Shown: in pieces, positions 59 to 61,472 of the stretch | How the letters are laid out: every line of letters begins with the position of its first letter | Numbering within the stretch: position 1 is the stretch's first letter | The notes under the pieces: model-generated | Database searches by the model: none | Told to the model about the DNA's origin: nothing | The model's input: the letters and a program-made list of their open reading frames with translations, nothing else | Program-made: the position numbers and the translations under genes | IMG/VR virus record: IMGVR_UViG_3300027901_000001 | Reading direction: 5' to 3' (one strand) | Source: a virus | Length of the DNA: 64,000 nt

Positions 59-838
59 TCAGGCATACAGGCCCTTTTCCAGGTTGAACTTCTTGATGAC
101 CGCCCGCGCCTCCTGGTAAGTCTTCTCCGCGTTGAATATCCCACAGCCCCAACAGAAGCCCTCCCGGTCTAACAATTGCGGATGGCCGCCACAATCCTCA
201 TACTCTAGGATGAGCAGGATGGCCTCCGATTGATTGAGCAGCTCATACCAGCCATCTGCGGCCCGTAGAGGCACCTCGTCGGCGTCCCTGGGCTCACAGG
301 CACCACAGACCCCATCCTGGCGTCGGCCGCGCCACAAACGCCCCCTATAGGACCCCGGCAGCAGGTTGAAGTGCCGCTTACAGAACGGCAGTTCAGGATG
401 GCAGTCGACTGCCTCACACCCCCTGGCATGGCAACGGTGAACTGGCCACGCCTGCGGAGCTTCGGCCTTCGCGGCCCTCCTCTCCGTTTTCAGCGGCGTC
501 CCCGTTCTCCTGTACTGCCTCATCAAGCGAGCATGAGCGGCCTCAACCTTTGCCAAGGAGGTCCCCTCTATCTCGATCAAATTCGCCGCCAGCCACTTCC
601 TTATCCTTCCCCCTATAACGGCACTCCAGGCGTTATGATGATGGGGCTCTCCTACAACAGACTGAATAGCGGTTCGGATATCCTCCCCCGTAAAAACTTC
701 TCCTTCCGGGGTTTCACTAAACCAACCATCTATCTCAGCTTGCGCCGTATATTTCCACTCCCCGGCGTTCTCCGCGACACGCTCCATTCCCCTGTCGCGC
801 AGCTCTTCTCCGTTCGTCCGATCATCATCATCACACAT
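59..838 (-). CDS. Phage hypothetical protein; N-terminal helical domain fused to a Cys/His-rich putative Zn-binding domain
   Basis: 259-aa ORF; HHHNAW motif, then HRCHARGC...PFCKRH and CGGH...CWGCG. Confidence 0.7.
   Translation of the reverse strand: MCDDDDRTNGEELRDRGMERVAENAGEWKYTAQAEIDGWFSETPEGEVFTGEDIRTAIQSVVGEPHHHNAWSAVIGGRIRKWLAANLIEIEGTSLAKVEAAHARLMRQYRRTGTPLKTERRAAKAEAPQAWPVHRCHARGCEAVDCHPELPFCKRHFNLLPGSYRGRLWRGRRQDGVCGACEPRDADEVPLRAADGWYELLNQSEAILLILEYEDCGGHPQLLDREGFCWGCGIFNAEKTYQEARAVIKKFNLEKGLYA
400..413. repeat. Dispersed palindrome GGCAGTCGACTGCC, copy 1
   Basis: Exact 14-bp palindrome inside CDS 59..838 (encodes AVDC). Confidence 0.95.
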
Positions 839-850
839 AACAGCGGTGGC

Positions 851-1612
851 TCACTTATCCCAGCCGCGCAGCTTGGCCTCGCCATCATCTGGGTCCTCCG
901 GCTCAAGAGACTCGGCATCTTTTTCTGGCTCGCCTGCGGGCTCGGGGACATCATCTGCGGGCTGCGGAGCTTCTTCGGTCACAAGCGTTCCTATCACGTT
1001 CCCGTCCGCATCCTTCACGAAATGCCACCATCCCTCAACACCCATCCTGCTCCGCGCCTTTGTTTCCCTTTCGACTATCTCAGCCTCTTCTTTGGACAAA
1101 AACACGACCGGCTTGCCATCGTGCCTACCGGCCGCAAAAGGAACCTCTATCCTGAAATAGCGTTTCTCCGGCCTCATTCCTTCCTCAGAATGCGTGGCCA
1201 TCACGCGCCGTTGAAAATCGAGATACCTGGATAACAGCCGCTCCTCCCGCAACGTCGGGTCAAACCATCTGCGATACCGGTTCGGCAAAGGAACTCCACG
1301 CAAAGGGGGCTCGACCCGACGCAGAAATCGTTTCACCCCCCATATCAAATCCTCCACGTACGCTTCTTGCGCCCGCTTCTTCAGCCTGAAAAACATCCGC
1401 GCCCGGCGCTCCCAGAACCAGTGAAACAAATGCTTTTTCAGGATGGAAATAATCTGCTGCGTGTCGACTCCCGCATCCCCTTCCTGCTGAAGGGAATCCA
1501 GTAGCTCCGTGAATCTCTCGCTGGCTTCTCGCCTCGTATCCGACGAAAAAGGGGACTCCATTAGTTTTTGGAGTATGCCGATCAAATCGTCCAAACGTTC
1601 TCTTGAATCCAC
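851..1612 (-). CDS. Hypothetical protein with acidic tail
   Basis: 253-aa ORF tiling between neighbours. Confidence 0.7.
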   Translation of the reverse strand: MDSRERLDDLIGILQKLMESPFSSDTRREASERFTELLDSLQQEGDAGVDTQQIISILKKHLFHWFWERRARMFFRLKKRAQEAYVEDLIWGVKRFLRRVEPPLRGVPLPNRYRRWFDPTLREERLLSRYLDFQRRVMATHSEEGMRPEKRYFRIEVPFAAGRHDGKPVVFLSKEEAEIVERETKARSRMGVEGWWHFVKDADGNVIGTLVTEEAPQPADDVPEPAGEPEKDAESLEPEDPDDGEAKLRGWDK

Positions 1613-1623
1613 GTTTCCTTCTC

Positions 1624-1905
1624 CTAGTGATAATCCTCGTCCTCTCCCATGTGCAGCACCGGGTCATGCTCACCGTCAATCTCTTCCGGCAGCTCCCCCT
1701 CCACGCGCCTAAGAAGGCCGTCCACGTCTCTCAAATCGGCATTCCTTCTGAACGGCACGCCCGCCCTGTCGCCATCATCAGGCTGGAGTGGATCGAAATG
1801 AAGCGATGGCTCACGCGGTGCCAGCACCACGTCCTTTGTCCATTTCCATATCAGATACCGCTTCAGCCAGTAAAACGGCGACAGCCAGCGCAAAACCGTC
1901 ATCAG
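1624..1905 (-). CDS. Hypothetical protein (start MTVLRW)
   Basis: 3' part of ORF 1624..2244; ATG overlaps the stop of 1902..2393. Confidence 0.55.
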   Translation of the reverse strand: MMTVLRWLSPFYWLKRYLIWKWTKDVVLAPREPSLHFDPLQPDDGDRAGVPFRRNADLRDVDGLLRRVEGELPEEIDGEHDPVLHMGEDEDYH

Positions 1906-3109: not shown

Positions 3110-3131
3110 TGGGTCCGCGTACGCGGCCCGG

Positions 3132-3368: not shown

Positions 3369-3537
3369 GGCTTTCCCTCAGCCTCCCACGACACTTTATC
3401 ACGAGGAGGTGGCGGTTCGATATGGGCCGTCCGGAGCCTGAAAAGGAGCTGATCCACTGACTTACTGCTGCCCCGCCACTGGCACACCACCTGGATAAGC
3501 TGCCGCCGGGCAGCCCGGATCACTTCCTTGTCACGCT

Positions 3538-4650: not shown

Positions 4651-4662
4651 GCTACCCTTTCC

Positions 4663-11452: not shown

Positions 11453-12215
11453 AGCCCCACACCTTCTGCTTGGGGAAATCGGTCTTACGGCCCCGCAGCT
11501 TCTTCAGCTTGATGTGCCAGCACCAGGGATTCGTGTTCCAGGCGTAGCCCTCGTTGTAGTACGACCCATCCCAACCCGAGGCAAAGTGAGCACGGAACAG
11601 GTCGTCCTCAGTCCACTCTGGAAGGCGACGCCCCACGTAGGCAGTCGGGGGGTGCGCGCCGGTGAGCCGGATCATCGGCCTGAACCGGCCCTTCTCCCTC
11701 GCACCCATGACCCGGATACCGTCCAGCTTGATTTCCTCCAGGGTAATAGTCTGGAGCCGCCGTACCTCGATGACCTCGATCCGGAAGAGGATGCGCGAGG
11801 CCCAGCGCGGCATGTGGATGGACGGCCGCCAGGGACCGTTCACATACTCCACCTCTTGGTCCGCCCGGTATATTATCTCGTAGCCATCAGGACACTTCTT
11901 CGGAATTGGCTCCTTCCACAAATCCTCCCACTCCTCTCTAAGCCTGAGATTCCACGCCTCGCGCACGTACAGCCGGTCGCCAGGCACCCCGTGGGGACAG
12001 CGAACGACGCCTCCATCAAGGCAAGGGTAAGACGGCCCTCGGAACAAGCGGGCGGTCCCCGGCCCGTCCCGGCCTGGACACGCCACGTACTGGGTGTACG
12101 GGGGCGGCGGCTGCGGCCGGATCGGCCGCCACGTCGCCTTCTTGAGGCCCAGCAACGCGGCCCGCACCAGCTCGTCCCGAAGGAGAAGCTGGCGCTCTTT
12201 CACCTGATGTTTCAC
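11433..12215 (-). CDS. ASCH/PUA-like phage protein, paralogue 1
   Basis: KERQLLL..LLGLKKATWR, PGDRLYVREAW, WRPSIHMPRWASRI, RRLQTIT, NPWCW. Confidence 0.8.
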   Translation of the reverse strand: MKHQVKERQLLLRDELVRAALLGLKKATWRPIRPQPPPPYTQYVACPGRDGPGTARLFRGPSYPCLDGGVVRCPHGVPGDRLYVREAWNLRLREEWEDLWKEPIPKKCPDGYEIIYRADQEVEYVNGPWRPSIHMPRWASRILFRIEVIEVRRLQTITLEEIKLDGIRVMGAREKGRFRPMIRLTGAHPPTAYVGRRLPEWTEDDLFRAHFASGWDGSYYNEGYAWNTNPWCWHIKLKKLRGRKTDFPKQKVWGFGSREE

Positions 12216-12223
12216 GTGAAACG
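12208..12223. promoter_or_regulatory. parS-like site (15/16 to consensus)
   Basis: TGTTTCACGTGAAACG versus the bacterial parS consensus TGTTTCACGTGAAACA; lies at a gene junction. Confidence 0.8.
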
Positions 12224-12646: not shown

Positions 12647-12841
12647 TCAGAGACTGAAGATGTCCGGGTCCGCCTCCCTGAACTCTCGTTCCGGCCCACC
12701 ACAGCCCAGACAGTGGCGCACCGAAGAAGGATTGACGGCCCCGCATCGGGAACAGCTCCAGCCCAGTTCCCCTTCTTCTTCACCTTCTCCGTTCAAAAGG
12801 CGGTCGACTGCATCCGCCGCGTGATTGAAATCGTCGCTCAT
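12647..12841 (-). CDS. RanBP2-type Zn-finger protein (start MSDDF)
   Basis: WSCSRCGAVNPSSVRHCLGC matches W-x-C-x2-C-x3-N-x6-C-x2-C. Confidence 0.7.
   Translation of the reverse strand: MSDDFNHAADAVDRLLNGEGEEEGELGWSCSRCGAVNPSSVRHCLGCGGPEREFREADPDIFSL
12799..12812. repeat. Degenerate palindrome copy (2 mismatches)
   Basis: GGCGGTCGACTGCA, about 30 bp downstream of the P2 start. Confidence 0.5.
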
Positions 12842-15711: not shown

Positions 15712-16281
15712 CTAGGCAGTCGACTGCCCTTTGAAAATCTCCAGCGGCGTCTTGTACGGCCGCATCAGTGGATGGAAGGGATCACCCTCCTTGGTAATGC
15801 CCAGGCACTCCGGCTCGCGATTCTGAAACTGAACGAGCGCCAGCACATCCCGCTTGCGCCTGGCAGCCCGGCGACGCCCGGCCCCGCCCCAGGCCACCAC
15901 CACCTTGCCAACGTTCTCCTGCTTCAGCACCTCCATGATGTACCGATCGTTGGTCGGCCCGATGGGTCTAACGTCGCGGCCCCAGAGGTCGCCCGGCTTG
16001 GTAGTGCGGAAGGCATACAGGTTCACCACCTCGATGCCACCGTACTCCCAGAGCGCCGCGAAGCCCATACACTTGCGGATGGTTGGGTCGTCCTCGGTGG
16101 CGTCGGCCGTGCTCGGGTTGAGCATAATCCATAACACGCGCTTGTCCTGGTGAGCTGGCGGAAAATGCCTGAGCGGAAACAATGAACGGCCTTCCCGAAT
16201 GCCGAACTCGCGCCACAGCCGGTAACGGTACTTGCCGTCATCGCTGATCACCGCGCCCGCATCTGCGACTATTGGCTTCAC
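15712..16281 (-). CDS. DUF1643 family protein
   Basis: SDDGKYRYRLWR, IMLNPSTAD..DDPTIRKC, VNLYAFR, VVAWG, HPL. Confidence 0.92.
   Translation of the reverse strand: MKPIVADAGAVISDDGKYRYRLWREFGIREGRSLFPLRHFPPAHQDKRVLWIMLNPSTADATEDDPTIRKCMGFAALWEYGGIEVVNLYAFRTTKPGDLWGRDVRPIGPTNDRYIMEVLKQENVGKVVVAWGGAGRRRAARRKRDVLALVQFQNREPECLGITKEGDPFHPLMRPYKTPLEIFKGQSTA
15715..15728. repeat. Dispersed palindrome copy 2
   Basis: Exact; last codons of DUF1643 (GQSTA*). Confidence 0.95.
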
Positions 16282-17740: not shown

Positions 17741-18671
17741 AATCGGCTCCTTTCTCCTTCCACTGCTGCCTAGCGGCCAGAGAACGATCCTCCAACCGCC
17801 TCACCTTCAGATACGCTAACAAAACCACACGCGCCTTGTTCACGCGGTCAAACTCTTCTTTTGCAGCCTCCGTAGGATTCCTATCCGGATGCAGCTCCGC
17901 CGCCCGCTTATTAGCTTTCCTCACCACAAACCTCTCGTCCGGAGGCTTTTTGAATACAAACCTTATCCCCAAAACTTCACAGGCCCACCTGGCATCGGCA
18001 ACGGTAATCGCCAACGCCTCTTCCATGTCCGCCCGCCGCTTTCCCTCTCGAATCCCATTAATAAGATCACTGATACAAAAACCAAGACCAACCTTGAATC
18101 GCCGGACAACCTCGTCCTTCACACTCCCATTGATGGCGTAGCCCTCACAAATTCTTTCCACAAAACCTTCAGCATTTTCCATCACCTGCGCCTTGAATAA
18201 ACGTGCGTCCGCGTCACCCTTTTTTTCTTCCTTCGCGTCTTTTTTTGTCTCCTCTGGCGCTTCTACGACTTCTTCTGGACCCGTTTCTCCCCGTAAACAT
18301 TGACTAACAACAAGTTCTAACGCCTTGGCAGTAGAAATCTTTTCTTTCCGAGAAAGTGCCAATATCTTTTTCCGTAACGAAATTGCCTTTCTAAGCGTAA
18401 CGGTCCCCTCATCGACCAGTCTAAACAGAACCTCCCCCCACCCACCTGTATTCAACAATATAGACCTACTTTGATAATGCGAAACCTTCCCCCCGAGAGT
18501 TTTACAAAGCCAGTCCCTTTTATAGATCCGCTTTCCATTTTCTTTTCCGCCCAGCATCGACCATAGGCCGTACATCTTGCCCTCAGCCTTGGCCAATTCG
18601 CGCTGGGACATTGACCCTTGCCCCTGCTTATAGCTATCAATCAGCTTAGCCAACTTTTCCTGTGCCGTCAT
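17724..18671 (-). CDS. Protein with C-terminal J-domain (DnaJ-like)
   Basis: RKANKRAAELHPDRNPTEAAKEEFDRVNKARVVL with the HPD motif. Confidence 0.75.
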   Translation of the reverse strand: MTAQEKLAKLIDSYKQGQGSMSQRELAKAEGKMYGLWSMLGGKENGKRIYKRDWLCKTLGGKVSHYQSRSILLNTGGWGEVLFRLVDEGTVTLRKAISLRKKILALSRKEKISTAKALELVVSQCLRGETGPEEVVEAPEETKKDAKEEKKGDADARLFKAQVMENAEGFVERICEGYAINGSVKDEVVRRFKVGLGFCISDLINGIREGKRRADMEEALAITVADARWACEVLGIRFVFKKPPDERFVVRKANKRAAELHPDRNPTEAAKEEFDRVNKARVVLLAYLKVRRLEDRSLAARQQWKEKGADYASEG

Positions 18672-19662
18672 CTCCGCCCTCTACTTCCGTGTACCCAGCC
18701 GCCTGCAAAAGCCGGTTAACCACCTTCCCACCAGATCCCTTCGACTCAGCCCCTTCTTCTCCATCCACTACTATGCTGCTCAACTTCTCCAGCCTGCCCA
18801 TCCCATCATTCATCAACTCCATATTCGCCTTCAGCTCCCGGATCAGCGGCCCCAGCGCAATGACCTTTAACAGCTTTTTCACAAGCCCCCCAACAAACAG
18901 AAGCTCGCCCCCCAGCTTTCTCATAAGGGACCGTGACTCTTCATCAAGAGTTATGTCCTGCTCCCGCTCCAGCTTTAACTCGTTTAATCCTTCCTCTATT
19001 TTTTGCAGCCGCCTACCGTAATCATCCTTGATCGTGCTCCAACGACCGTCCTCCTTCTCAAAACGAAGGTTCAACCGTTCCTTCAGCAAATCCATCCCTA
19101 AACAAAGTTCATTTTGTGTCTCCAACATCATACGCGCCCACTCATAATCCGGCGCTAAAGAACCGGTTGGGCCACCTTCATCCTCATCCTCGTATCTCTT
19201 CTCCTTCTCTCTTTCTTCCTCTCTTTTTTCTACCGAATCCTCCGACTTAACAATTGTTGAAGCCTCCTCCATAACGAACTGAAGAATATCGTCTGGCATC
19301 CGTGTTCCCTTGCTATTGGGAAATAAAAACCAAAGAAGCTCGTTTCCTCCATTAATGTCTTCTTGGTTAATAATTTTCTTCACATAGTCCAGCCACTGAA
19401 TGCCATAAAAAAGCTGGCCGTCTATGGTCGTAGTATAGAGAACACCATGCTCCACCATCCGGTGCAGATATTCTTTTTGCCAACGACTGTTTTTGAAGAG
19501 CCTGGTAACGACAACCCGGTCCACCGGCTCGGGCGGCTCAACGAATAATTCGCTCCTGGTTAAAATACCTCCCTCTCCTTCTTCAAAAAGCCGGATGAGT
19601 CCGTGCAAAGCGAATTTAGCTCGGGCGTCCTCTACGCTCTCCTTGCTGACCTTCGCCACCAC
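18646..19662 (-). CDS. Hypothetical protein with acidic linker and coiled coil
   Basis: 338 aa; GGAGG RBS directly after the palindrome. Confidence 0.7.
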   Translation of the reverse strand: MVAKVSKESVEDARAKFALHGLIRLFEEGEGGILTRSELFVEPPEPVDRVVVTRLFKNSRWQKEYLHRMVEHGVLYTTTIDGQLFYGIQWLDYVKKIINQEDINGGNELLWFLFPNSKGTRMPDDILQFVMEEASTIVKSEDSVEKREEEREKEKRYEDEDEGGPTGSLAPDYEWARMMLETQNELCLGMDLLKERLNLRFEKEDGRWSTIKDDYGRRLQKIEEGLNELKLEREQDITLDEESRSLMRKLGGELLFVGGLVKKLLKVIALGPLIRELKANMELMNDGMGRLEKLSSIVVDGEEGAESKGSGGKVVNRLLQAAGYTEVEGGDDGTGKVG

Positions 19663-19670: not shown

Positions 19671-19684
19671 GGCAGTCGACTGCC
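19671..19684. repeat. Dispersed palindrome copy 3 (intergenic)
   Basis: Exact; adjacent to the RBS of 18646..19662. Confidence 0.95.
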
Positions 19685-25016: not shown

Positions 25017-26240
25017 CTACTTTTCCGGTGCGGCAGCCGGAACGGAGGGAACCGCCTTGAGCGTAAAAACGAGACCTATAAACTTCTCGTTCTTGCGCGC
25101 TCGGACCAGCCTATCCACCTCTACCTTCGCCGCCTCGAACATCTTGCTCACACCGACACGAATTCGATCCAGGCTCACCTCTTCCAGATTCATATCTGGA
25201 TATGCCGAAGGCGGAATAAGAATATGGCCGCCGTCGTACCTTCCGGCCACAATCTTCCCAATCAAATCCGGTGTGAAACGCGGTAATTCCTCCAAATCCA
25301 CCATCGGCACATCCGACTGCCTATCAAACGGCTTTTGGCTGACCTCCCCAGCCTCCGGGCTGTAGACGCCAACCGTTTCCTGGGGCTCCTGGACACTGGA
25401 ATCAGCCTGTTTGGACGGGCTCTCCTCTTCAACCTGAGCCTCGAAAATCTCCGCGCACTGAACACATGGTATGCAACTGTCAGGCAGCTCCTCACCGACG
25501 GAGAAAATCGCACCTTCCGCACCACATAACGAGGTTACGCCATCCCTGGTTTGGTGCACGGTGACGCCCGCGAACGCCTGCTCCACGGCCGCGTCGTTCT
25601 CCGCCGGGCCGGGCTTAGGATCGACCACATCATCAACGGTCACCTCCGTCGCCGTGTCCTGTTGGGCAGTCGACTGCCCCTTGCGCACCTTCAAAGCAAT
25701 CAAACGGCTTTTGAGCCGCTGTTCCTCTGCCAGGGCCTCCTCATCGGAAAGCTGCTCGACGGGCTTTACAACCGGATTCTCGGCCAGCCGCTGAGCTATT
25801 TGCTGCTCGGCCAGCATTTCGACCTGGCGCTGGGCGATGAACTCGTCCCGCGCCTGCTGGCACGCGGGCTTGTCGCAGTACCAGGCCATCTTGCCGCCGC
25901 CCGCATCAACGCCCTTCCAGCCCGCCTGGTCGCCCCGGCCGATCACCTTCAGGTGGCAGCCCTCGCACTCCCGAATCTCATCTGGAACCTTATGTCTCGG
26001 ATACAAGTCGTCCGGTACTATTGCCATCTCCTTCTCCTTTCGCTCCTCCCTCAAAACGGCCCAGCGCTTGGTGCTGACCCGCCGGAATTCCACCCTTACT
26101 ATACTCCCGTCCTTGACCACTTCGGCTATCCAAATGTCACCGGTACCGATCGGCGGTAGCATTTTCTTGATGGCCCCGCCGCCATCGTACCGGCTCCGCA
26201 AAAATCCTCGCGCCCAGTTCCACTCAATGGACTCGCCCAC
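25017..26240 (-). CDS. Hypothetical protein with Zn fingers and acidic region (possible internal start at 26027)
   Basis: CEGC...YCDKPAC, C...CVQC. Confidence 0.65.
   Translation of the reverse strand: MGESIEWNWARGFLRSRYDGGGAIKKMLPPIGTGDIWIAEVVKDGSIVRVEFRRVSTKRWAVLREERKEKEMAIVPDDLYPRHKVPDEIRECEGCHLKVIGRGDQAGWKGVDAGGGKMAWYCDKPACQQARDEFIAQRQVEMLAEQQIAQRLAENPVVKPVEQLSDEEALAEEQRLKSRLIALKVRKGQSTAQQDTATEVTVDDVVDPKPGPAENDAAVEQAFAGVTVHQTRDGVTSLCGAEGAIFSVGEELPDSCIPCVQCAEIFEAQVEEESPSKQADSSVQEPQETVGVYSPEAGEVSQKPFDRQSDVPMVDLEELPRFTPDLIGKIVAGRYDGGHILIPPSAYPDMNLEEVSLDRIRVGVSKMFEAAKVEVDRLVRARKNEKFIGLVFTLKAVPSVPAAAPEK
25664..25679. repeat. Dispersed palindrome copy 4 (extends to 16 bp)
   Basis: GGGCAGTCGACTGCCC. 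Confidence 0.95.
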
Positions 26241-29332: not shown

Positions 29333-30755
29333 CGCCGCCTCCATTCTCCTTCACTAGATTCTTCATAGAGGGCAGTATTTCAGCCCATTCCGCAAGTGCT
29401 GTCGCCGCTTTTCGCGCTGAAACACCCAAACGCGCAAACGCCCGCATTCCCCGGTTCACCTGCACCTTGAATTTGAACCTCCGGAACCGCCTGTCCCAGT
29501 CGTCCATCAATCGCCCTTCTTCTTCAGCTCTCGGATCAGCCCACGCATGATCCTGATGGCATCTTGCAAAACAGTCGGAGGCACGGGCACGGTGGCCGTC
29601 TTGCGGCTCGCCCACTTCGTGCCCGTCAACCACCGAAGGAAATCCTCCGCCTGCTTTATCCAGTTGGGGTCCTCATCCTCCCAGGACTCCAGCTTCACAC
29701 GCCGGTCCAGGTCCGCCAGGTCCACGGTCACCGCACCCTCCGGATACAACGCAAACTCGTACAGCTCCTTGCCATCCGATATCAGCAAGAACGTGGCGCG
29801 CTTGCCGTCCACCAGGACACGCTCACCGAGCTGGAGCGCCTTCGCCACTTTCGAGGCCCTGTATGTCTGCGCCCACCCCATCAGCGGTTCATCGCAGCGA
29901 TGCCACGCACGATGTCGGACAGCTTGTACGGCCTGGTCAGCCGCAGCTCGCCCGGATTGCACACGCGCTCCAACTCCTCCACCCTGGCGCGCACGATGTC
30001 CAGGGCCTCCGCATCATTGCGACCCTCGCCCTTCACGGCCAGGTCGCCCTTGGTGAGCAGCCAGAAGGTGAAGCCCTGGTCGTCCAGCCGATAGTCGCTG
30101 TGCACGGCCACGGTCCAGCCCATGAACCGCAGATCGCTCGGATCGCCGCGCTGGGCCACGTCGATTTCAACGCGGTCCTTGTCCATCTGCGCACACATGG
30201 CGTTGGCAAACCAGCCGACCATCAGGTCCGGGTCGATCTGCTCCAGCGTCCAGCGGTTCTTCTTTTTGAGCCGCTCGAATTCCGCTGCCCAGACCGTAGC
30301 GTCGGTCGTTTCGAGCAGGTTCACGTCGTCTCCCGTGGCCGGTTCCGGCTCCGCGACCTCGCGCACCGCCACCTCCGGCTGGCACGGCGAGATATCGTTT
30401 TCGACCTCGATACCGGAGTGCCGGATGGCACGCTCCAGATCGGCAAATCCGACATCGCCGGTATCCTTATGGTGCAGGTGCTCCCACACCCTGATTACCT
30501 CTGACAGCTTCAGCTTCGTCATGGCCCCTCCTTCTGCGCCGCCGGTACATCGTGCTTGCCGCACACCCGGCAGATGTTGGTCTTGTCGCGGCCCATAATG
30601 TCTCTGAAATAGGTCTCCGGATGGTCGCACACCGCCTGAATCGCCTCCGTTAGCTTCTTGTTGTAGGCCAGCTTCAGGTCCAGCAGCCGCCGCTCCTCTC
30701 GCAAGGCCCGCATCTGGGCCTCAATCTCCTCCCTGGTGGTCGGCATCTCGGGCAT
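29286..30755 (-). CDS. Run of small hypothetical genes (within ORFs 29286..29633, 29507..29962, 29881..30522, 30519..30797)
   Basis: Tiled minus-strand ORFs; true starts internal. Confidence 0.5.
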
Positions 30756-31696
30756 CATCCACCCCCGGCCTGGTTCTTGTAGGGAAACGCCGGACACTCG
30801 TACTGCCCCTTTTCGGCAGTCCGAAGACGGCAGTCGTCTGCCGCCTCCAACGCCTGTTGGAGTCTGTTTTCGAGCTTTCCGTGGGCTACCGCTACTCTAT
30901 CGAAAGCCGTGTTTACCGTGAACAACTCGGCCCGCGCCTGCTCCAGCTCGATTTCGAGCCGCTCGACCTTCCTGTCCTTGGACCGTAGCTCGACCGCCTC
31001 GTCAAAGCTCCAGTCGGCGATCAGCTCGCGCAGTTCCTCCAGTTCCTCATGGGTGGTAGTGAGCTGGTCGCCTTCGACCCTTACGTGCTCGTGCCACCAG
31101 GCCCGGATGGCCTCCCGCTTGTCAAACTCGGCATGGTAGGCCCGCTCCATCTTGTCGCGTTCCTGCGTCACCGCATCCATCGTCTGCTGCGAATAACCGG
31201 TCCCAGCATCGTCCAGTTTCTTCAATCGCGCTAGAGCCTCTTCTCGTTCCAGCTCCGCCTGCCGCGCCAGGTCGTTCTGCTGGGCCAGCACCTTGGCGTT
31301 GGCGGCGAGATCCGCCCGCGCCTTTTCAAGATCACGCCTGGGCTTACAGTGAAGATGCCCATCATTATCGCAAATCGCATCCTTACAACGAGCGCACATC
31401 TCCGTATTGAAGGCCCGCGCTTCCTTGAACAGGCGCAGTATCCGCTCCAGCTCCCTTTCCAGAGGGTAGGGGGCGCTATCATCGTCCGGCCGCCGCCTAA
31501 AGCTCAACACCGACAGCGCCTTGTCGAGCTGCTCCGGCAGGCTCATCCAGACGCCCAGCGTCGCCATCATCCGGTAGACGGTGTTCTGCGGCAGCGGCCC
31601 TTGCAGCTCCGCCTTCAGCAGGTCCTCGACCTCCTCCGGGGTCATCGGCCCTCGCGGATCACCTATCATCACCACCTTCTTTCCCACCCAAAACAA
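30755..31696 (-). CDS. Coiled-coil hypothetical protein
   Basis: 313 aa, heptad-rich, CARC..C..H..C. Confidence 0.7.
   Translation of the reverse strand: MFWVGKKVVMIGDPRGPMTPEEVEDLLKAELQGPLPQNTVYRMMATLGVWMSLPEQLDKALSVLSFRRRPDDDSAPYPLERELERILRLFKEARAFNTEMCARCKDAICDNDGHLHCKPRRDLEKARADLAANAKVLAQQNDLARQAELEREEALARLKKLDDAGTGYSQQTMDAVTQERDKMERAYHAEFDKREAIRAWWHEHVRVEGDQLTTTHEELEELRELIADWSFDEAVELRSKDRKVERLEIELEQARAELFTVNTAFDRVAVAHGKLENRLQQALEAADDCRLRTAEKGQYECPAFPYKNQAGGG
30829..30842. repeat. Near-copy of the palindrome (1 mismatch)
   Basis: GGCAGTCGTCTGCC. Confidence 0.7.
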
Positions 31697-33846: not shown

Positions 33847-34481
33847 AGCCTAAATTCGAGCACCCAAACCCAGAGATTCGACTCCCAGGGGAAGCCGCGC
33901 CGCTCGTTCAGCAGGTCCCAGGTCATCGCATAGGCCCCAACCACATCGCCCTCCACGGCCTTATCCGCAACGCCTTCCGCGATGGCGTCCGCCTCGGAGA
34001 TGGCCTGGAGCCGCTCAACCCGGATGCCGGTCAGCTCCAGCGTCATCCGGCTGGCCCACCGGGGCATGAAACGCGGAGATTTCCACGGGCCGCGATGCCC
34101 GCTCTTGAACCACGGCTCATTTATCGGCTGCCCGTTGTGCTCATGGCGACACATCAAATCGGCCTTGTAGTGCGCCCACCGAAACGGGTTTTTCTTGTCC
34201 CAGTCCGAATACCAGGTCTCGCGTACCCAGATGCGGTCGCCCGGCTGGTAAGGACAGAACTGCGCCATCGGCACCGTCACGTCCCGGATGCCATCGGCCC
34301 ACGAAGCCTTTAAGCGTCTCCAGGAGCCGTCCGGGAGCTTCTCCGTGATAAAGGGCCATTCCCAGGTCCGGCCCTCCACCAGGACCGGCTGAGCGCTTAT
34401 CACACGCCGGGTCTGGGTCTTGGCCCCGGACAGAAGACCGGGAATCGACTCCCCGGTGAAGATGAGACCGCGCTCCTTCAC
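33828..34481 (-). CDS. ASCH/PUA-like phage protein, paralogue 2
   Basis: KERGLIF..LLSGAKTQTRR, PGDRIWVRETW, WKSPRFMPRWASRMTLE, ERLQAISEADAIAEG, WVWVLEF. Confidence 0.85.
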   Translation of the reverse strand: MKERGLIFTGESIPGLLSGAKTQTRRVISAQPVLVEGRTWEWPFITEKLPDGSWRRLKASWADGIRDVTVPMAQFCPYQPGDRIWVRETWYSDWDKKNPFRWAHYKADLMCRHEHNGQPINEPWFKSGHRGPWKSPRFMPRWASRMTLELTGIRVERLQAISEADAIAEGVADKAVEGDVVGAYAMTWDLLNERRGFPWESNLWVWVLEFRLIDKLS

Positions 34482-35382
34482 CTGTCCCCTTCATCCTGCC
34501 GCTCAGCAGCCACCAGTTCATCGAGTTTGTCATCCCCTTGCAAGGCAGTCGACTGCCCCTGCTCGAAATCCACCTGGTCGGCCTCCAGGGCGAATGTCAG
34601 CTCCCGGACCCGGCCCTCCAGGACCTTGATATAGTCGGCGGCGATGTGGCCGTGGGGGTCCTCCGATACATCGTAATCGGCCTTCAGGTCGCGCAGCTCC
34701 TGGTCGGTAGGAAACGGCATCGCGCCCCGGACCGCCGCGTCCCATATCTTGACCGGTACGTGGAACGTGTAAAAGCGAGCACAGCCGGACCGATGCTCCG
34801 CCACTCGCAATAGCCCGGTATTGGGTTCCTCCAAAACAAAAATGACCTCGTATTGCCTGTCGCCGATTCTCAGCTTGTCACCCAACGTGGCCATTACTTC
34901 TCCAACTCTTTCAATATTCGTTCCTGGGCCTCCCGAACAGCCGTGGCCGCTTCCGTTTCCGTCAGCTTCAACGCTGCTATCTCCTTTACCGCGTCCAATG
35001 AACGAGAGACGTGTTTCTCCAGCGCCTTCTGAAAAGCCCCGGCCCTGAATGCCAGCTCGCGTACCCGGCCTTCCAGCGCCTGAACATACTTTTCCGAGTC
35101 TTCCCGTGCGAACGAGAGATTGTCGCTGGAATTCCAGGTGTGAGCCTCAAACTCGCCCTTCAGCTTCGCCAGCTTCTCAATCGAAATTTCGGCAGGAAAA
35201 GGAGCCGCTCCCTGGACCGCTGCGTCCCACAGCTCGACCGGTACCAGGAATTGATGGTCCTCGGGAGTCTTCACCGTGACGAACCGGTCCTCCCCGGTAT
35301 CGAAATCACCAAGGGAGACCACCTCGAACCGCCTGCCGTTGATCGTTACACTGTCCCCTCGTTTGACCATCGCCCACCTCAA
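34478..35382 (-). CDS. Two related hypothetical proteins (34478..34894, 34894..35382)
   Basis: Both contain PVxxWDAAVxGAxPFP and YxxxLEGRVRELxF. Confidence 0.7.
34544..34557. repeat. Dispersed palindrome copy 5
   Basis: Exact (GQSTA). Confidence 0.95.
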
Positions 35383-43433: not shown

Positions 43434-43802
43434 CTACACCTCCTGGTTTTTCATTTTCGCCATCGACAGCTCATCTTCAGCCGCCTTGATGATCTGGAAC
43501 ACATGGCCCGGCAGCGGCTTCTCCACCAGGCTGACCTCGATAACCCGAAAATCCATCTCCATCTTCCACAGGCCCCTGCTCTTGGGTTCCGACACCACCA
43601 CCGCCGTAACATCTGGCCCCGTCGCCCAGTCCATGCCAAGGCAGTCGACTGCCTTTTGGCGCGCCGCGCCCATGTCCCAGTACCGCTTCGGCCCAAACAG
43701 CCGCCGGGCTATCGCCTCCACGAACCACGGGGTTACGAGCCCGGCCGCCAGCAGCGGGGCCGACCTCCCTAAAAATTCACGCCTGGTCATCGGAGTAGGC
43801 AT
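43434..43802 (-). CDS. Small protein with twin-arginine signal-like N-terminus (copy 1)
   Basis: MTRREFLGRSAPLLAAGLV. Confidence 0.7.
   Translation of the reverse strand: MPTPMTRREFLGRSAPLLAAGLVTPWFVEAIARRLFGPKRYWDMGAARQKAVDCLGMDWATGPDVTAVVVSEPKSRGLWKMEMDFRVIEVSLVEKPLPGHVFQIIKAAEDELSMAKMKNQEV
43638..43655. repeat. Dispersed palindrome copy 6 (extends to 18 bp)
   Basis: AAGGCAGTCGACTGCCTT. Confidence 0.95.
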
Positions 43803-48666: not shown

Positions 48667-48978
48667 CTATTTCAGCCCCAGTTCGTTCTTTACCTTCACC
48701 CTGAGCACGGCGGCCCAGTCTCCTTCGGCCTTCTTCAGAAAGGCCAGAACCTCTGTCAGGAGCCGCTGCTGGCTCTTGATCGTCTCCGACTCAGTAACCC
48801 CCAGGTAGGTGAGCAGCTCCACGTCCAACGTCCGGCGCGCATCCTCGCGCCAGACATCGAACTCGGGACCCCTCTTCCGAGCCACCTGCCGATAGGTATC
48901 GACGGCCGTGATGACCCTTTCAAGAGCCGTCTTCCGTTCCGCCATCGGCACCCCCGGCACACAGCTTGCTACCGGCAT
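48667..48978 (-). CDS. Hypothetical protein
   Basis: 103-aa ORF. Confidence 0.55.
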   Translation of the reverse strand: MPVASCVPGVPMAERKTALERVITAVDTYRQVARKRGPEFDVWREDARRTLDVELLTYLGVTESETIKSQQRLLTEVLAFLKKAEGDWAAVLRVKVKNELGLK

Positions 48979-49457
48979 AGTGCCCTCCGGCGCATCTCGG
49001 GGTCAACTGGTCGGGTCAGGGCTTCCAGAGGCGTCAGACCCAGTTTCAGGCGCTTGTAGACGGTGCTACGACCGAGCCCGCGCCGCGCCGCGTGCTCCAA
49101 AAATGTGGCCACCATTCCATTCAGTTTCACCTGACCTCGCTCGCCCGCCCGCGCCCGCGTACGACATCGATCGCTGCAATACTGCCGTCCCGGAACCGCA
49201 GGTCGCCCGCACAAGCCGCACGGATGGGTACCTTGCCGTTCCAGTCGCCGGGTCACCGGACCGCCTTCCAAAACCTCCTGGAAAATCAAAATCTCGACAT
49301 CCAGCTCCGAGTCAGCCTCCAGACGCTCAATCGCCCGTCCACGGCATTCCGCACAGTAAATAGCCCCCGGCTCGGCCGTCTCGCCGCATCCCAAGATGGC
49401 ACATCGCACCGGCTGGAAATATCGGGCAGTCGACTGCCTCCGGCGCGCCCCTAGCAT
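48969..49457 (-). CDS. Zn-finger protein with C-terminal homing-endonuclease-type HTH
   Basis: CAILGC..YCAEC, CGLC..YCSDRC, LGRSTVYKRLKLGLTPLEALTRPV. Confidence 0.65.
   Translation of the reverse strand: MLGARRRQSTARYFQPVRCAILGCGETAEPGAIYCAECRGRAIERLEADSELDVEILIFQEVLEGGPVTRRLERQGTHPCGLCGRPAVPGRQYCSDRCRTRARAGERGQVKLNGMVATFLEHAARRGLGRSTVYKRLKLGLTPLEALTRPVDPEMRRRALCR
49425..49438. repeat. Dispersed palindrome copy 7
   Basis: Exact; about 20 bp downstream of the P8-driven ATG. Confidence 0.95.
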
Positions 49458-57046: not shown

Positions 57047-57050
57047 CCTA

Positions 57051-59087
57051 TCAAGTTATGCACCCGAAGTAACGACTCACCACTCTCGGACAAGGGGGCG
57101 CAGCACCCACTTCTTCCCCCTTATCCTGGGAATAAAAGTAGTCCGACACCCTAGCAGCGTAATCGATAATCCTGTTTTTGTGCCTCTCCAGAGCCCGAAC
57201 CTGCTCCCGAGTATAGGGCTTGTACTGATCGTGGGACCAATCGGCCGCCATATCCTGGCGGCGCGTGCGGATTTGGAGTTCCTTCACCTCACCGTCCTTG
57301 TCCACGATGTCCAGGTGGATGCTCCGATACTTCACCGCGCCCTGGGGATTACGCACCTTGTCATCAATGTTCTTGATCCTTATACCGTATCGCGCCCCCT
57401 TCCCTTTGATACTCTCAATAATATCATACACTTCTCCGATGGAACCGGCGATGATCCTGGTTCCGGTCACATCTCCCAGGGCACTCGCTGCCTTGTATTT
57501 GACGTTCTTTGCATCTGGCGGGGCGATCTTACCCAACATGCTATCGAGGTCCTTCAGCCGACCCGTTACCTTGTACCGGGGACCCGCCAGTCTTCCCAGG
57601 TCCCTCATAAATCCCTGCTGCCGCTTGGCGTGCTTGGCCCTCATCTCCTTCGCAGCCCGGATATGGTCACCAACGCCCAACGGCGCAATCAATCCCTGCT
57701 GCACATACCGCGCCATCCTCCGAATGGTACTAGCCAGCTCCTTCCTCTTCTTTGCCTGGGCCTCAGCATCTTCCACAACATCTTGAGCAAAGGTTCCCTT
57801 CACCTTCCGCCATTTACTCGGATCGGCGATTTTAACATGCACCCCCGTCTTGCGTTTACGCCGGGTGCCAATATCGTACTTGATTTCCTGCAAAATCCTG
57901 TCCAGCGGCGACAGCTCCCGTGACGCTCGAATACCCTTGGCCTCCGGCCATCTGGCCGCCAGCTTGCCCACGGTCACCTGGAGCCGAGCGGCCACATCCG
58001 AATCCAGGCGCTGCCCCAACAATTGCCCCGCGAAGGCCCGAGAAAAGCCCTCCTGCCCCTTTCCATTCCCCCAGGTCTCCCTGTCCCCCTTACCGAACTC
58101 CTGAAGCCACAGGCGTTCTGCGAGCGCCCTGAGCACGTTTTCGATGTTGGCCGAACCGGACCGCTGGGCATCGAAAATGAACAGGTCCGCCGTCGGGTCA
58201 TACTGAACAAAAGCAGTGCCTTTTACCTTGGCCGGATTCAGCTCCACCAGGCCGCCCGCCGCCGTCAACAGCCCCACACCGGTGAGCACCTTCGAGGCCC
58301 CCTCCAGCGCTCGCGTTACGTCCCGGACCTCGGAGCTGGTGTATCCCCACGTGTTCACGACCTCAAATCCAGCAGCCTTGAAAAATGGGTCTGCTTTACC
58401 CAAACCCTTAGCTGCCACCTTCCGAGCATCCCGAAGACCCCCGGCCAGCGCCCGCAACGCGGCCGACGCCTTCCTCGCCCCGGTGGGAGAGGTCCAAACA
58501 TTATGGGCAAGCCGCTTCAAAGTGGACCGGAGCTTACTCACCTCCGGCCGCTCACCCTCCAGGGCATCGGCGACGGGCTCTGCAAGCGCAGCCATCTGTT
58601 TGAGCTTCCAGGAAGCAGCCCCGGTAACCGACACCGCCACGGCCGTCTGCTCGATCTCCTTGGCGATAGCCTTGAGATAGGAGTCAGTCAGCGGGTCACT
58701 GCTGATCTTCGGAACGGCCTCTGTCAGATGCTCTTTCACCGTCACCGATCGTACCACCACCTGCGGGCCGGTCGGAGCATTTGTCGCCCTGGGCGGATCG
58801 TACCTCTTGAGCACCTTCACCGGCCACGCCCACAGCTCCCGGTCCTTTGGCCACCACTGCTGGCGCTGCTCATCGCTGATACGGTGCTCGCCCCGGCGAC
58901 GCTCAAACTGCTTAACGGTGAGCTTTTCCTGCTTGCCCAGCCGGACTGTACCGTACGCCTTCCGGCTACTGAGCAGCACGAACTCCTTGCCCGCGACATC
59001 AAAAGGCTTACTTTTGACGATGAGCTTCTTTTCGCCGTCGCGCACCATCTCCGCCATCGCGGTCGGCGAAAGGATGAGCCCCTCCAC
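57051..59087 (-). CDS. Multidomain protein: ASCH-like N-terminus, central domain, C-terminal RelA/SpoT (small alarmone synthetase-type) nucleotidyltransferase
   Basis: GRLKDLDSMLGK, GDVTGTRI, KYRSIH, ELQIRT, WSHDQYK. Confidence 0.88.
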   Translation of the reverse strand: MEGLILSPTAMAEMVRDGEKKLIVKSKPFDVAGKEFVLLSSRKAYGTVRLGKQEKLTVKQFERRRGEHRISDEQRQQWWPKDRELWAWPVKVLKRYDPPRATNAPTGPQVVVRSVTVKEHLTEAVPKISSDPLTDSYLKAIAKEIEQTAVAVSVTGAASWKLKQMAALAEPVADALEGERPEVSKLRSTLKRLAHNVWTSPTGARKASAALRALAGGLRDARKVAAKGLGKADPFFKAAGFEVVNTWGYTSSEVRDVTRALEGASKVLTGVGLLTAAGGLVELNPAKVKGTAFVQYDPTADLFIFDAQRSGSANIENVLRALAERLWLQEFGKGDRETWGNGKGQEGFSRAFAGQLLGQRLDSDVAARLQVTVGKLAARWPEAKGIRASRELSPLDRILQEIKYDIGTRRKRKTGVHVKIADPSKWRKVKGTFAQDVVEDAEAQAKKRKELASTIRRMARYVQQGLIAPLGVGDHIRAAKEMRAKHAKRQQGFMRDLGRLAGPRYKVTGRLKDLDSMLGKIAPPDAKNVKYKAASALGDVTGTRIIAGSIGEVYDIIESIKGKGARYGIRIKNIDDKVRNPQGAVKYRSIHLDIVDKDGEVKELQIRTRRQDMAADWSHDQYKPYTREQVRALERHKNRIIDYAARVSDYFYSQDKGEEVGAAPPCPRVVSRYFGCIT

Positions 59088-59090
59088 GCC

Positions 59091-59594: not shown

Positions 59595-59604
59595 CTCCTT
59601 CTCC

Positions 59605-60186
59605 TTATTTACTGAAAACGCGGTATTTTTTCCAAATGGTCTCCATAAATGAATTCGCCGCTTTGTCGACCGCCCTAAGAAACGCCGCCTTGTCCTTGCG
59701 CTCCATGTGTTCCGACTTCACGGCCTGGTCCAAATCGTCAATGAATTTCCGTATCAACCTCGATGACGCATCGTAGAACGGCGGCCTTTCCTCCTTCAAT
59801 TCTTGCTCCTCCTGTACCGGCGGCGTGTACCCGTGGTCCTTCTTGCCGGTCTGGGGCTTCGTGGTGTCCCTCTGGCCAGGCAGTCGACTGCCTGCCTCCT
59901 TGGCCAACCGCACCAGGTCGGCGTCGGGCACCTCGGTAATCGCACTAGCCACGGCCCGGCCGCGAGCATCGAAATAGACAATCCCCTGAGAACCGTTGGC
60001 CATCCTGAACCGATGCCGGTCCGGAATGCACTTCCGGAGCACGAAGCTCTCCAGCTTCCGGCGCTGCTCGGGATCGGACAACAGCGGCCATCCGCTCACG
60101 TTGTAATCGGGGTCGAACTCGGGGTGATCGACCTCGCCATCCAGCTTCTGCTGCTCGGTAAGATGGGAAAAAATATGCTCCAGCAT
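59605..60186 (-). CDS. Hypothetical protein
   Basis: 193 aa; ATG overlaps the upstream stop. Confidence 0.7.
   Translation of the reverse strand: MLEHIFSHLTEQQKLDGEVDHPEFDPDYNVSGWPLLSDPEQRRKLESFVLRKCIPDRHRFRMANGSQGIVYFDARGRAVASAITEVPDADLVRLAKEAGSRLPGQRDTTKPQTGKKDHGYTPPVQEEQELKEERPPFYDASSRLIRKFIDDLDQAVKSEHMERKDKAAFLRAVDKAANSFMETIWKKYRVFSK
59877..59894. repeat. Dispersed palindrome copy 8 (extends to 18 bp)
   Basis: CAGGCAGTCGACTGCCTG (encodes GSRLP). Confidence 0.95.
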
Positions 60187-61217
60187 CAGGACCTCTCTTT
60201 CGGCTGCTGTACCACTTTACCACCGCCGATCCGCTCCCGGCCACCTTTCCCACGCTTGCGGCTCCGGATGACTGGACCGTCCACGTAGTTCTCGAACCGA
60301 GCCGGATCCGCCGGAGGCACGAACTGGGAAGCCGACGGGCTCGTACCGACGCCATGCGCAGAGCCGACAGGTACTCCCGTGTACGCCAAGCCAGGAGGAT
60401 AAGCGGGCGGCGTCTTGGGCGGCAAGACAATCTCGAATAGCGAATTAAACCGGCCACGCTCGCTGGCTTCCGACTTTCTGGCACCGTGTGGCATCGGAAT
60501 ACGGCCCTTGCAGAACTGGGCCAGAACAGCGTTGAGATTCCGCGTGGTGTGATCCGCCTCGAAAGACGACTTGGACCAGCCCACCTCCTCAGCGGCCTTA
60601 GCAACCCGCCGGAGCTTCGTGACCCACTGCAACCAAGCACGCCGCGCCCCGATCTCTCGCCGTTGAGGCTCAGGAACCCCCACCGCCCTTTCCAGCAGGT
60701 CATCCAACCGGAGGCAGCCACCTAGACATTCGGGCTCCGCAGCTTCATGGGTCTCCCAGGGAGGCTCACACTCTCCCTTCTTCATAATGGGCTTGCCATG
60801 CACCCCGCCACGCTGTTTCCCGTCAAACAGAATGTAGCACTCTTTCCCCGCTGGCTTCAGCTTCGCCATCCTAGCGCGAGCAGCCTTCTCATCGTCAAAT
60901 CCTTCCCCCAAAGGAATATCCTTCCCGGCCCAGGTCGTTCGGTGAATGATCTGGTATCGCTTCACCCCGGTTTTCACTCCGGGCGGCCGAAGGTACACCC
61001 GTCTCTCGCCCAACTCTGTCTCCTCAGCTTTCTTCTTGCCTGCCGCTATCACCTGCTGGGGCGTCATGCGCTCCTTGGATGTCACCCCGCACGCCCGCTT
61101 GAGCGTGCTCATGGCTATGGCGAAATGCTGGGTTCCCTTGGCCGTCTTGCCCCGGTAATACTCCCGCCGGATGTTCGCCTCAAAAGCATCCATCGAGCAT
61201 CTGCGGTCCAGCGGCAT
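60186..61217 (-). CDS. Multidomain hypothetical protein
   Basis: 343 aa; linkers ELGE and RLDDLLE. Confidence 0.7.
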   Translation of the reverse strand: MPLDRRCSMDAFEANIRREYYRGKTAKGTQHFAIAMSTLKRACGVTSKERMTPQQVIAAGKKKAEETELGERRVYLRPPGVKTGVKRYQIIHRTTWAGKDIPLGEGFDDEKAARARMAKLKPAGKECYILFDGKQRGGVHGKPIMKKGECEPPWETHEAAEPECLGGCLRLDDLLERAVGVPEPQRREIGARRAWLQWVTKLRRVAKAAEEVGWSKSSFEADHTTRNLNAVLAQFCKGRIPMPHGARKSEASERGRFNSLFEIVLPPKTPPAYPPGLAYTGVPVGSAHGVGTSPSASQFVPPADPARFENYVDGPVIRSRKRGKGGRERIGGGKVVQQPKERS

Positions 61218-61220
61218 AGC

Positions 61221-61472
61221 CTATCCTTGCTCTCGACGACCCTCAGCAACCAGGAAGAGGTAGTCGACTGCCTCTTTGCAGCCGTGCTCTTCGAGATATC
61301 CCCTTAAGGCTTTGTCCAGAATCCGGCCAGGGGTCAAGTTTTCGGCCTTGGCCTGGAGAAGTAGGGTCTCCCACATGGCCCGTGTGATCACCAGGACCAT
61401 CGCATCCCCGGCGTGCCTGATTATCTCCGATACGGCCTCATCTTCCTGGGAAAGCGCAATCGCTTTTGCCAT
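61221..61472 (-). CDS. Small protein, possibly ribbon-helix-helix-like
   Basis: VLVITRAMWETLLLQAKAENLTPGRILDKALRGYL. Confidence 0.6.
   Translation of the reverse strand: MAKAIALSQEDEAVSEIIRHAGDAMVLVITRAMWETLLLQAKAENLTPGRILDKALRGYLEEHGCKEAVDYLFLVAEGRREQG
61255..61276. repeat. Near-copy of the palindrome (1 mismatch, extends to 22 bp)
   Basis: AAGAGG-TAGTCGACTG-CCTCTT. Confidence 0.8.

Follow-up and report, generated by a model that had tools for sequence, protein, structure and literature searches.

Why should a virus carry one short palindrome at intervals along its whole chromosome, inside genes as well as between them? The question is raised by a 64,000-nt stretch of DNA (the window; G000:C1:32098-96097, minus strand) of the IMG/VR virus record IMGVR_UViG_3300027901_000001 (here G000), in which the 14-bp palindrome GGCAGTCGACTGCC, spelled GGCAGT-CG-ACTGCC, recurs in near-identical copies. 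A first-pass annotation of the window had read these copies as a candidate phage centromere or operator network. The source record is 191,623 bp long with a GC content of 58% and a 94-bp terminal repeat, and is estimated to be complete, so that the copies could be followed over the entire chromosome of this uncultured phage, whose full sequence was traced to one sequencing run only, a marine sediment metagenome. As set out below, the 14-mer forms an evenly spaced lattice that is conserved, under changing spellings, in part of the phage's family, and that probably consists of recognition sites for a putative dimeric protein.

Across the whole genome there are 20 exact copies, 4 copies with one mismatch and 2 with two mismatches, while only 0.0005-0.0015 exact copies per genome are predicted by Markov models (order 1-5) for whose training the copies had been masked. 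Within the window, 11 matches with at most two mismatches were found where 0.40 were expected, a number reached in 0 of 100 shuffles. All 11 coordinates recorded by the first-pass annotation were borne out (eight exact copies, one-mismatch copies at 30829 and 61259, and a two-mismatch copy at 12799), and its estimate of 6e-4 copies per 64 kb was of the right order of magnitude when set beside the Markov models. The copies, in window coordinates and with the open reading frames (ORFs; lengths in amino acids, aa) that surround them, are as follows.

400..413: exact copy inside a 259-aa Cys-rich ORF, 59..838 (-), where it is read E-A-V-D-C-H.
12799..12812: two-mismatch copy, GGCGGTCGACTGCA on the + strand; intergenic, 37 nt downstream of a promoter-like TTGACT-N17-TAGATT (-).
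15715..15728: exact copy in the last codons, G-Q-S-T-A, of a 189-aa ORF, 15712..16281 (-); a TAG stop follows directly.
19671..19684: exact copy in the leader of a 338-aa ORF, 18646..19662 (-); GGAGG and the start codon follow directly.
25665..25678: exact copy inside a 407-aa ORF, 25017..26240 (-).
30829..30842: one-mismatch copy, GGCAGTCGTCTGCC, with the centre ACGA/TCGT, inside a 313-aa ORF, 30755..31696 (-).
34544..34557: exact copy inside a 138-aa ORF, 34478..34894 (-).
43640..43653: exact copy inside a 122-aa ORF, 43434..43802 (-).
49425..49438: exact copy at the 5' end of a 162-aa ORF, 48969..49457 (-), 26 nt downstream of a promoter-like TTGACC-N17-TAAGAT.
59879..59892: exact copy inside a 193-aa ORF, 59605..60186 (-), read G-S-R-L-P.
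61259..61272: one-mismatch copy, GGTAGTCGACTGCC, inside an 83-aa ORF, 61221..61472 (-), read E-A-V-D-Y-L.

The steep fall from 20 exact copies to 4 and then 2 indicates that all 14 positions matter. The element also has sharp edges. Extension of several copies to palindromes of 16-22 bp, which had been reported from the window, turned out not to be a property of the element, as extension is at chance level and 14 of the 20 copies extend by 0 bp; the sole signal outside the 14 bp is an A at position -1 in 22 of 40 half-sites, which occurs per half-site and is not paired. On a circular map, the gaps between exact copies have a coefficient of variation (CV) of 0.52 (P=0.0012), and those between copies with at most one mismatch a CV of 0.49 (P=0.0001), compared with a CV of ~0.94 for random placement; the density is about one site in every 8-9 kb of chromosome. 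The 14-mer is absent from the literature searched, where a generic search for dispersed palindromes was also uninformative, and among 2.9 million IMG/VR contigs scanned, the exact 14-mer was present in 30, in a single copy each, and none elsewhere had more than one.

How the copies are placed shows that it is the DNA that is under selection. About half of them are intragenic and, as the first-pass annotation had seen, all three reading frames are used (AVDC, xQSTA and GSRLP). Each frame costs at least one rare codon (AGT, CGA, ACT and GCA make up 10%, 7%, 11% and 9% of their synonymous sets), and the residues at the copies differ from those of orthologues in the related genomes G002, G003 and G005 (GQSTA as against GHAVA or GHWMA, for example). 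At the place of the window 400 copy, a further relative, G001, has GGCAGACGATTGCC at the same codons, and G002 and G003 are without the motif. The use of three frames, the rare codons and the residues changed with respect to orthologues together support the earlier proposal that selection acts on the DNA and not on the protein. The single intergenic leader counted in the window was too few for the genome as a whole, in which 5-6 copies fill the junction from a stop codon to the Shine-Dalgarno sequence that follows it (genome 97336, 103545, 147610, 184521, 172917 and, in part, 76414) and another takes up the 18-nt spacer that separates tRNA-Thr(tgt) from tRNA-Thr(ggt). Upstream of the leader copy at window 19671..19684 lie a promoter-like site and TATAAATA. 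Overall, copy placement looks opportunistic, as if a site were needed per stretch of chromosome and not at particular genes.

In related phages, copies proved to be kept at orthologous places, and the lattice thereby withstands the refuting test that the first-pass annotation had set for it. Three of the 30 single-copy IMG/VR contigs are relatives with ~70% DNA identity, and each has its copy at a place orthologous to one in G000. L010 and L012/G008 have the exact 14-mer at the place of genome 19906, and L020 has it at the place of genome 184521, where the upstream gene is unrelated and the arrangement of stop codon, motif and Shine-Dalgarno sequence is nevertheless retained. Two further contigs were found via a neighbouring gene: L262 has exact copies at the places of 147610 and 162450, the latter inside the Cpn10 gene, and L263 has one at the 162450 place together with another at a junction where G000 has none. 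The relatives that keep the exact 14-mer are ~70% identical to G000 in DNA or 55-80% identical in protein. G008 retains the one-mismatch variant of genome 34826 (window 61259) with the same mismatch, and lacks the copy at genome 36206 (window 59879), where it has 4 mismatches; this loss shows that sites turn over.

In other relatives the places are retained and the spelling changes. The closest large relative by capsid protein, G001 (84%; other proteins are ~50% identical), has no exact 14-mer, and carries 13 GGCA-N6-TGCC sites where 2 are expected, 10 of the 13 with a central CG. Six of its GGCA...TGCC sites or spacer variants lie at orthologous places (95685, 97336, 126948, 147610, 153784 and 162450). 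The outer GGCA/TGCC and the central CG are kept in these sites, and positions 5, 6, 9 and 10 vary without keeping their pairing, a pattern that fits recognition of half-sites better than a base-paired stem. In G004 (148 kb, capsid 67%) the element is GGCAAT-TG/CA-ATTGCC, present in 11 copies, often within TGGGCAAT..ATTGCCCA, with gaps of 5.6-22 kb and a CV of 0.43 (P=0.006). One of these copies, the sister palindrome GGCAATTGATTGCC, projects by tblastx to within 4 bp of the G000 copy at 34826 (window 61259) and by our own reading of the sequence is translated in frame as A-I-N-C, compared with A-V-D-Y in G000. The fragment G005 has 5 copies of TGGCCC-NN-GGGCCA, where 0.01 are expected, and contig L266 has two copies of GGCAAT-N3-ATTGCC, 7.5 kb apart. 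The complete genomes G002 and G003 have no lattice and no enriched dyad. The lattice is thus a trait of part of the phage family and follows a common 6+2+6 plan with a lineage-specific spelling. Separately, G004 (L253-L260) contains a second enriched dyad, CAAAG-N3-CTTTG (mostly CAAAGTTTCTTTG), in 12 copies against 0.2 expected.

A natural conflict with restriction-site avoidance gives a view of which positions count. GTCGAC, the hexamer at the centre of the 14-mer, is found 0 times in G001 (52 expected) and 0 times in L261 (7 expected), and the copies in both are all altered at the centre, L261 carrying GGCAATCGACTGCC. The simplest reading is that both lineages have been under SalI-type restriction pressure, which would have broken the hexamer while the rest of the site was kept as far as possible. 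As these copies with broken centres occur in lineages purged of GTCGAC, the outer GGCA/TGCC and the central CG emerge as the most important positions. The phage itself avoids other sequences. In G000, 14 six-base palindromes with 27-136 expected occurrences each are wholly absent (observed/expected CAGCTG 0/108, GCCGGC 0/136, GAGCTC 0/101 and CGCGCG 0/100, for example), and 20 of 48 testable hexamers have an observed-to-expected ratio below 0.1; its relatives purge other sets of hexamers, with GTCGAC at 1/69 in G005. That palindromic hexamers are purged in G000 makes its retention of a 14-bp palindrome more pointed.

Taken together, these data lead us to favour, with moderate confidence, a lattice of recognition sites for a putative dimeric, probably phage-encoded protein that binds or cuts DNA. 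The 14-mer would then be one spelling of a family-wide lattice of sites on double-stranded DNA, in which a two-fold-symmetric protein would read arms of 6-7 bp lying one helical turn apart. The two-fold symmetry and the sharp 14-bp edges fit the dimeric binding protein that had been proposed from the window, and the reader is accordingly taken here to be a protein dimer; it is most likely a product of the phage itself, given that sister phages differ in spelling. Selection would hold about one site per 8-9 kb throughout the chromosome, at whatever places tolerate one, be they junctions, leaders, the tRNA spacer or, at a cost in codons or residues, the insides of genes. The even spacing points to a chromosome-wide role in cis, in organisation, replication or recombination, or packaging, rather than to regulation of particular genes. 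Recognition by protein at the level of DNA, if a reader encoded by the host is included, is in our judgement likely overall.

Several observations weigh against this reading. The lattice is dispensable in the family, since the complete genomes G002 and G003 have none. At positions 5/10, G004 has a symmetric G:C -> A:T change, just as expected of compensation within a stem; it fits both a dimer that co-evolves with its site and a compensated stem. The recurrent copies between stop codon and Shine-Dalgarno sequence and the copy between tRNA genes would also suit a signal at the level of RNA. Finally, the same 14-mer occurs 85 times in an element resembling a miniature inverted-repeat transposable element (MITE) in one metagenome-assembled genome (MAG) of the Bacteriovoracales, G006, which could point to a reader encoded by the host. 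The last three of these lead to the two alternatives that survive best.

In the first, the 14-mer would act in transcripts or single-stranded DNA as a 5-bp stem with a UCGA loop, marking RNAs for processing or stability or insulating ribosome-binding sites at junctions. In its favour, the 5-6 junction copies fit precisely into the gap from stop codon to Shine-Dalgarno sequence and the tRNA-Thr spacer is filled by its copy; G001 keeps GGCA-N7-TGCC at the 97336 junction, has a 3-nt insertion at 162450 that is still palindromic, and places an unrelated hairpin at the 172917 junction; the 5/10 change in G004 is compensatory; and the phage encodes RRM and KH proteins. The stem is a weak one, however, at -6.4 kcal/mol as RNA and -3.4 as DNA, and most G001 variants could form only a 4-bp stem (-3.5 to -4.5 kcal/mol), in which G-U pairs favour neither strand. 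The loop sequence, a palindrome in its own right, is invariant in 20 of 20 exact copies, extension of the stem is at chance, about half of the copies lie deep in genes at a cost in codons or residues, the window has no Rfam match, and even spacing over a whole genome has no obvious meaning for RNA. On balance a role as an RNA or single-stranded hairpin seems unlikely, if less so than the other alternatives below. An intrinsic terminator or a structured RNA family was also considered and rejected, given the stem of -6.4 kcal/mol, the lack of a conserved flank and the lack of an Rfam match in the window.

In the second alternative, the copies would recruit or titrate a DNA-binding protein of the host, and the sister spellings would reflect different hosts. 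Here the evidence centres on G006 (2.3 Mb), whose 85 exact copies stand at the apex of a MITE-like foldback; in addition, the phage has five host-type parS sites and no ParB, making the use of host DNA-binding proteins plausible, and the differing restriction-avoidance profiles of its relatives imply different hosts. Against this, a blastn-short comparison of the G006 element with the phage found nothing in common but the 14-mer with at most six bases next to it (a match of 14-20 bp, in single copies), 80 other genomes of the same order have no copy, and the G006 sample has a GC content of 44-51% as against 58% in the phage and does not share its hexamer avoidance. An identical spelling is moreover kept in spite of differing avoidance and GC content (G000 58%, L262 56%, L263 50%, G008 51%). 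In a scan of 185,579 species genomes the matches listed were mostly single hits, and by our own rough estimate the probability of a chance coincidence with one MITE family among so many species is a few per cent. The G006 coincidence may thus be due to chance or to a shared reader; G006 as the host of the phage is not supported by composition or hexamer avoidance, the link being the shared 14-mer only. We consider a host-encoded reader improbable. The foldback itself (seen, for instance, in L232, L237 and L240) is 110-190 bp long, running from GTAACTGCTCACC through the 14-mer at its apex to GAGCAGTTAC; it is often found at contig ends, and exists in versions with and without a 53-nt internal segment. 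An origin of the phage copies by insertion of MITEs or of repetitive extragenic palindromic (REP) elements was rejected, as there is no conserved flank and the coding copies align codon for codon with orthologues; the phage copies arise in place by point changes and not by insertion.

If the lattice is read by a dimer of the phage's own, which gene might encode it? About 17 genes are present in the genomes that bear the lattice and absent from the complete lattice-free genomes G002 and G003. Among these the leading candidate, a lead and not a finding, is the P0125 family, a lineage-restricted family with a predicted PD-(D/E)XK nuclease fold. The P0125 gene (genome 147634-148464, 276 aa) starts 24 nt after the conserved copy at 147610, in G000 as well as in L262. 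It has only 34 homologues among 5.8 billion proteins, the invariant residues of the family being E23, D38 and E56-x-K58, and its structural model (predicted local distance difference test score, pLDDT, 89) consists of a PD-(D/E)XK nuclease domain followed by very long C-terminal helices. The best fold match is the uncharacterised 3dnx (E 1.7e-7), with weaker matches to the restriction endonucleases and Holliday-junction resolvases PaqCI, BamHI, MunI and Hjc. The family is found in G000, G004 (E 4e-88 with the family profile), L261, L262 and L266, and a search with the profile gave no match in G002 or G003. There is the further possibility, an improbable one, that the lattice is the target set of the phage's own P0125 nuclease, which would nick or cleave the phage chromosome at regular intervals, at sites kept by selection. 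Such breaks could seed recombination-dependent replication or provide loading points for the replication and late-transcription machinery, and the spelling of the sites would co-evolve with the nuclease under the constraint of host restriction systems. Several observations count against P0125. G001 lacks the gene at the syntenic place; in neither G004 nor L261 does it lie beside a copy; no lattice could be detected within +/-10 kb of its distant homologues in L264 and L265; and the phyletic match amounts to four genomes, in a field of ~17 genes with a similar pattern.

Further candidates are a 147-aa helical protein (genome 169868-170311) common to G000, G001 and G004 and a ParB_N-MT-A70 protein (genome 155116-156348) common to G000, G004 and L261-L263. 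The helix-turn-helix (HTH) protein that the first-pass annotation had put forward at 19942-20178 (P0001) found no support: it has no match in Pfam, PHROG or NCBIfam and two homologues, one of them on a 3.4-kb contig without a copy. A Rep protein of the HUH type was rejected as the reader, with the 14-mer as its nick site, given that the centre varies in G001, that the flanks are unconserved and that G002 has a Rep homologue without a lattice; no Rep homologue was found in the MITE-bearing G006. The gene in question (genome 126214-127437, L041:6214-7437, outside the window) encodes a 407-aa Rep_1/HUH-like protein with HVHLHL and KYASK motifs that scores below the Pfam cut-off. It contains one 14-mer copy and one parS site, and is present in G001 (44%) and G002 (35%), in those genomes near a gene for a UvrD/PcrA-like helicase. 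Searches for related loci with the 407-aa window protein, the ParB_N-MT-A70 protein and the ParB_N-like protein described below returned no relatives, and one with a 528-aa protein returned a single distant contig without the 14-mer. A look-up of the 140-aa protein upstream of site 97336 gave no usable identity, and a second look-up showed a 217-aa protein to be a class I S-adenosylmethionine (SAM) methyltransferase.

The two roles first proposed for the palindrome fared less well. In a partition centromere or KorB-like silencing network, a clamp of the ParB/KorB family would load at the copies. Exact dispersed palindromes do resemble the OB operators of plasmid RK2 and parS arrays (PMC11790492), and two weak ParB_N-like matches were found, in a 116-aa protein (genome 148863-149213) common only to G000 and G001 and in the N-terminus of the 410-aa MT-A70 methyltransferase. 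Both matches fall below the Pfam cut-off; the 116-aa protein is too small to accommodate a DNA-binding domain and carries DGNST in place of the ParB GERR, and the ParB_N-MT-A70 family, with >4,500 members and 45-69% identity across many phages, is too uniform to account for lineage-specific spellings. A six-frame search found no match to the ParB HTH (PF17762) at E<=1 and none to a ParA-type ATPase (AAA_31, PF13614), with controls matched in 14/14 genomes, nor was there a tyrosine integrase, with positive controls in 14 genomes, serine recombinases and protelomerase not being covered by the search. The 14-mer is unrelated to parS, the canonical form of which is present as a separate motif, and the genome is T4-type with no sign of lysogeny. 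A centromere therefore fails as an explanation and is very unlikely.

The proposed network of promoter-proximal operators or stoperators for a global transcription repressor is hardly more plausible. Three copies (12799, 19671 and 49425) do lie 26-40 nt downstream of TTGAC-N17-TAxxAT-like sites, as had been reported, and the junction copies recall the placement of mycobacteriophage L5 stoperators near gene boundaries. Only 2-3 of the ~26 TTGAC-N16-18-TAxxxT sites have a copy within 80 nt, though, so that most copies are far from promoter-like sites and most such sites are without a copy; around half of the copies fall in the middle of genes, the site, being symmetric, has no orientation whereas stoperators are asymmetric and oriented, and no repressor-like family was found among the proteins scanned.

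The parS motif is a feature in its own right, with five canonical sites in the genome.

Window 45807-45820 (genome 50278): canonical parS site.
Window 12209-12222 (genome 83876): canonical parS site.
Genome 126799: canonical parS site.
Genome 140582: canonical parS site.
Genome 165446: canonical parS site.

Their core is GTTTCACGTGAAAC, and three of the five have the full 16-mer TGTTTCACGTGAAACA. L262 and L263 retain the parS site that immediately precedes the ResIII helicase gene, and G002 and G003 have one 16-mer with one mismatch each; the genes near the parS-like site of G002 are those of an HD-domain protein and of unknown proteins, with no ParB among them. The five sites are presumably read by a recruited host ParB. 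Directly upstream of the same ResIII helicase gene lies the gene for a 196-aa protein (genome 164790-165380, L043:4790-5380) which, by eye and without a family match, appears to have a homing-endonuclease-associated repeat followed by a PD-(D/E)XK-like motif. Inteins were seen in the ResIII helicase orthologue of L262 and in the DnaB gene of L266.

As for the phage that carries these sites, G000 is a T4-type myovirus. Its structural genes are of the T4 type (Portal_T4, E 1e-53; major capsid protein Gp23, E 5e-60; tail sheath, tube and baseplate), its replication and repair genes include a UvrD-like helicase, a DnaB-like helicase, a primase and a RecA/UvsX-like protein, and ~234 of 256 crude gene calls lie on a single strand. 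Among GenBank phages there was no DNA match to G000 and no protein match for its 1,213-aa protein or its Rep-like protein, and its major capsid protein is at most 34% identical (<=34%) to that of any cultured phage. There are two tRNA clusters, of which that at genome 137997-140000 (L041:17500-20000) is dense, with 14 tRNAs in 1.8 kb, and includes the tRNA-Thr pair whose spacer is filled by a copy of the 14-mer. Accessory genes unusual for a phage, at window 57051-59087 (-), 17724-18671 (-) and elsewhere, encode a 678-aa RelA_SpoT-domain protein, a J-domain protein and RNA-binding proteins with RRM_1 and KH domains; others encode a peptide deformylase, Cpn10, an S-adenosylmethionine (AdoMet) decarboxylase, a patatin and a polymerase X thumb.

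How does the lattice compare with known systems of dispersed sites? In chromosomal ParB-parS and Noc-NBS (Noc-binding site) arrays, too, dimers that organise DNA bind a palindrome of 14-16 bp at several places; the 14-mer has no sequence relationship to parS or NBS, however, and neither ParB nor Noc is encoded in G000. L5 stoperators and the centromere sites of phage N15 share with the lattice the dispersal of a short site over boundaries and genes and its reading by one phage protein. They differ from it in that stoperators are asymmetric, oriented with transcription and bound by the immunity repressor of a temperate phage, there being no repressor here, and in that the N15 sites belong to the Sop partition system of a plasmid prophage, whereas G000 is without partition genes or integrase. 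Bacterial REP and MITE repeats offer a parallel in the G006 foldback, with the same 14-mer at its apex, but the phage copies have no conserved flanks. In plasmid RK2 (IncP), near-identical short palindromes are again dispersed over a replicon, the OB operators being read by dimeric KorB, which acts at a distance (PMC11790492). KorB is a ParB-family CTPase with an HTH and has a ParA partner, IncC, as well as KorA, none of which was found in G000, and OB sites are tied to promoters while the G000 copies are not.

Among published cases, the nearest is found in Cluster O mycobacteriophages (Cresawn et al. 2015, PMC4351075): a 17-bp dyad repeat, TGTTCGG-NNN-CCGAACA, which occurs in 34 copies in Corndog, or ~one per 2 kb of a 70-kb siphovirus, and for which the authors proposed a dimeric binding protein, its function being unknown (PMC4351075). 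The two have in common invariant inverted arms and many dispersed copies, inside and between genes and mostly not at promoters; in both, related phages have most positions in common and now and then lose one through a single change. In sequence the two are not similar: the Cluster O repeat has 7-bp arms around a variable 3-bp spacer, compared with a contiguous 14-mer here, and it recurs ~every 2 kb, whereas sites lie ~9 kb apart in this 192-kb T4-type phage. The 14-mer lattice is evenly spaced, is spelled differently in sister lineages and is worn down where restriction sites are avoided, features not reported for Cluster O. Dispersed dyad repeats of this kind have been noted once in the literature, in Cluster O, and left unexplained. 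To that case the present lattice adds a family that retains the places of its sites under different spellings (GGCAGT-CG-ACTGCC, GGCAAT-TG-ATTGCC, TGGCCC-NN-GGGCCA), natural 'knock-outs' in the form of two complete lattice-free relatives, a natural conflict with restriction-site avoidance that exposes the most important positions, and a short list of candidate readers drawn from the phyletic pattern, a nuclease-fold candidate among them. These additions make the dispersed-dyad phenomenon testable and, if the reader and its role are found, the lattice would represent a chromosome-wide cis-acting system of large lytic phages that lies outside current T4-type models.

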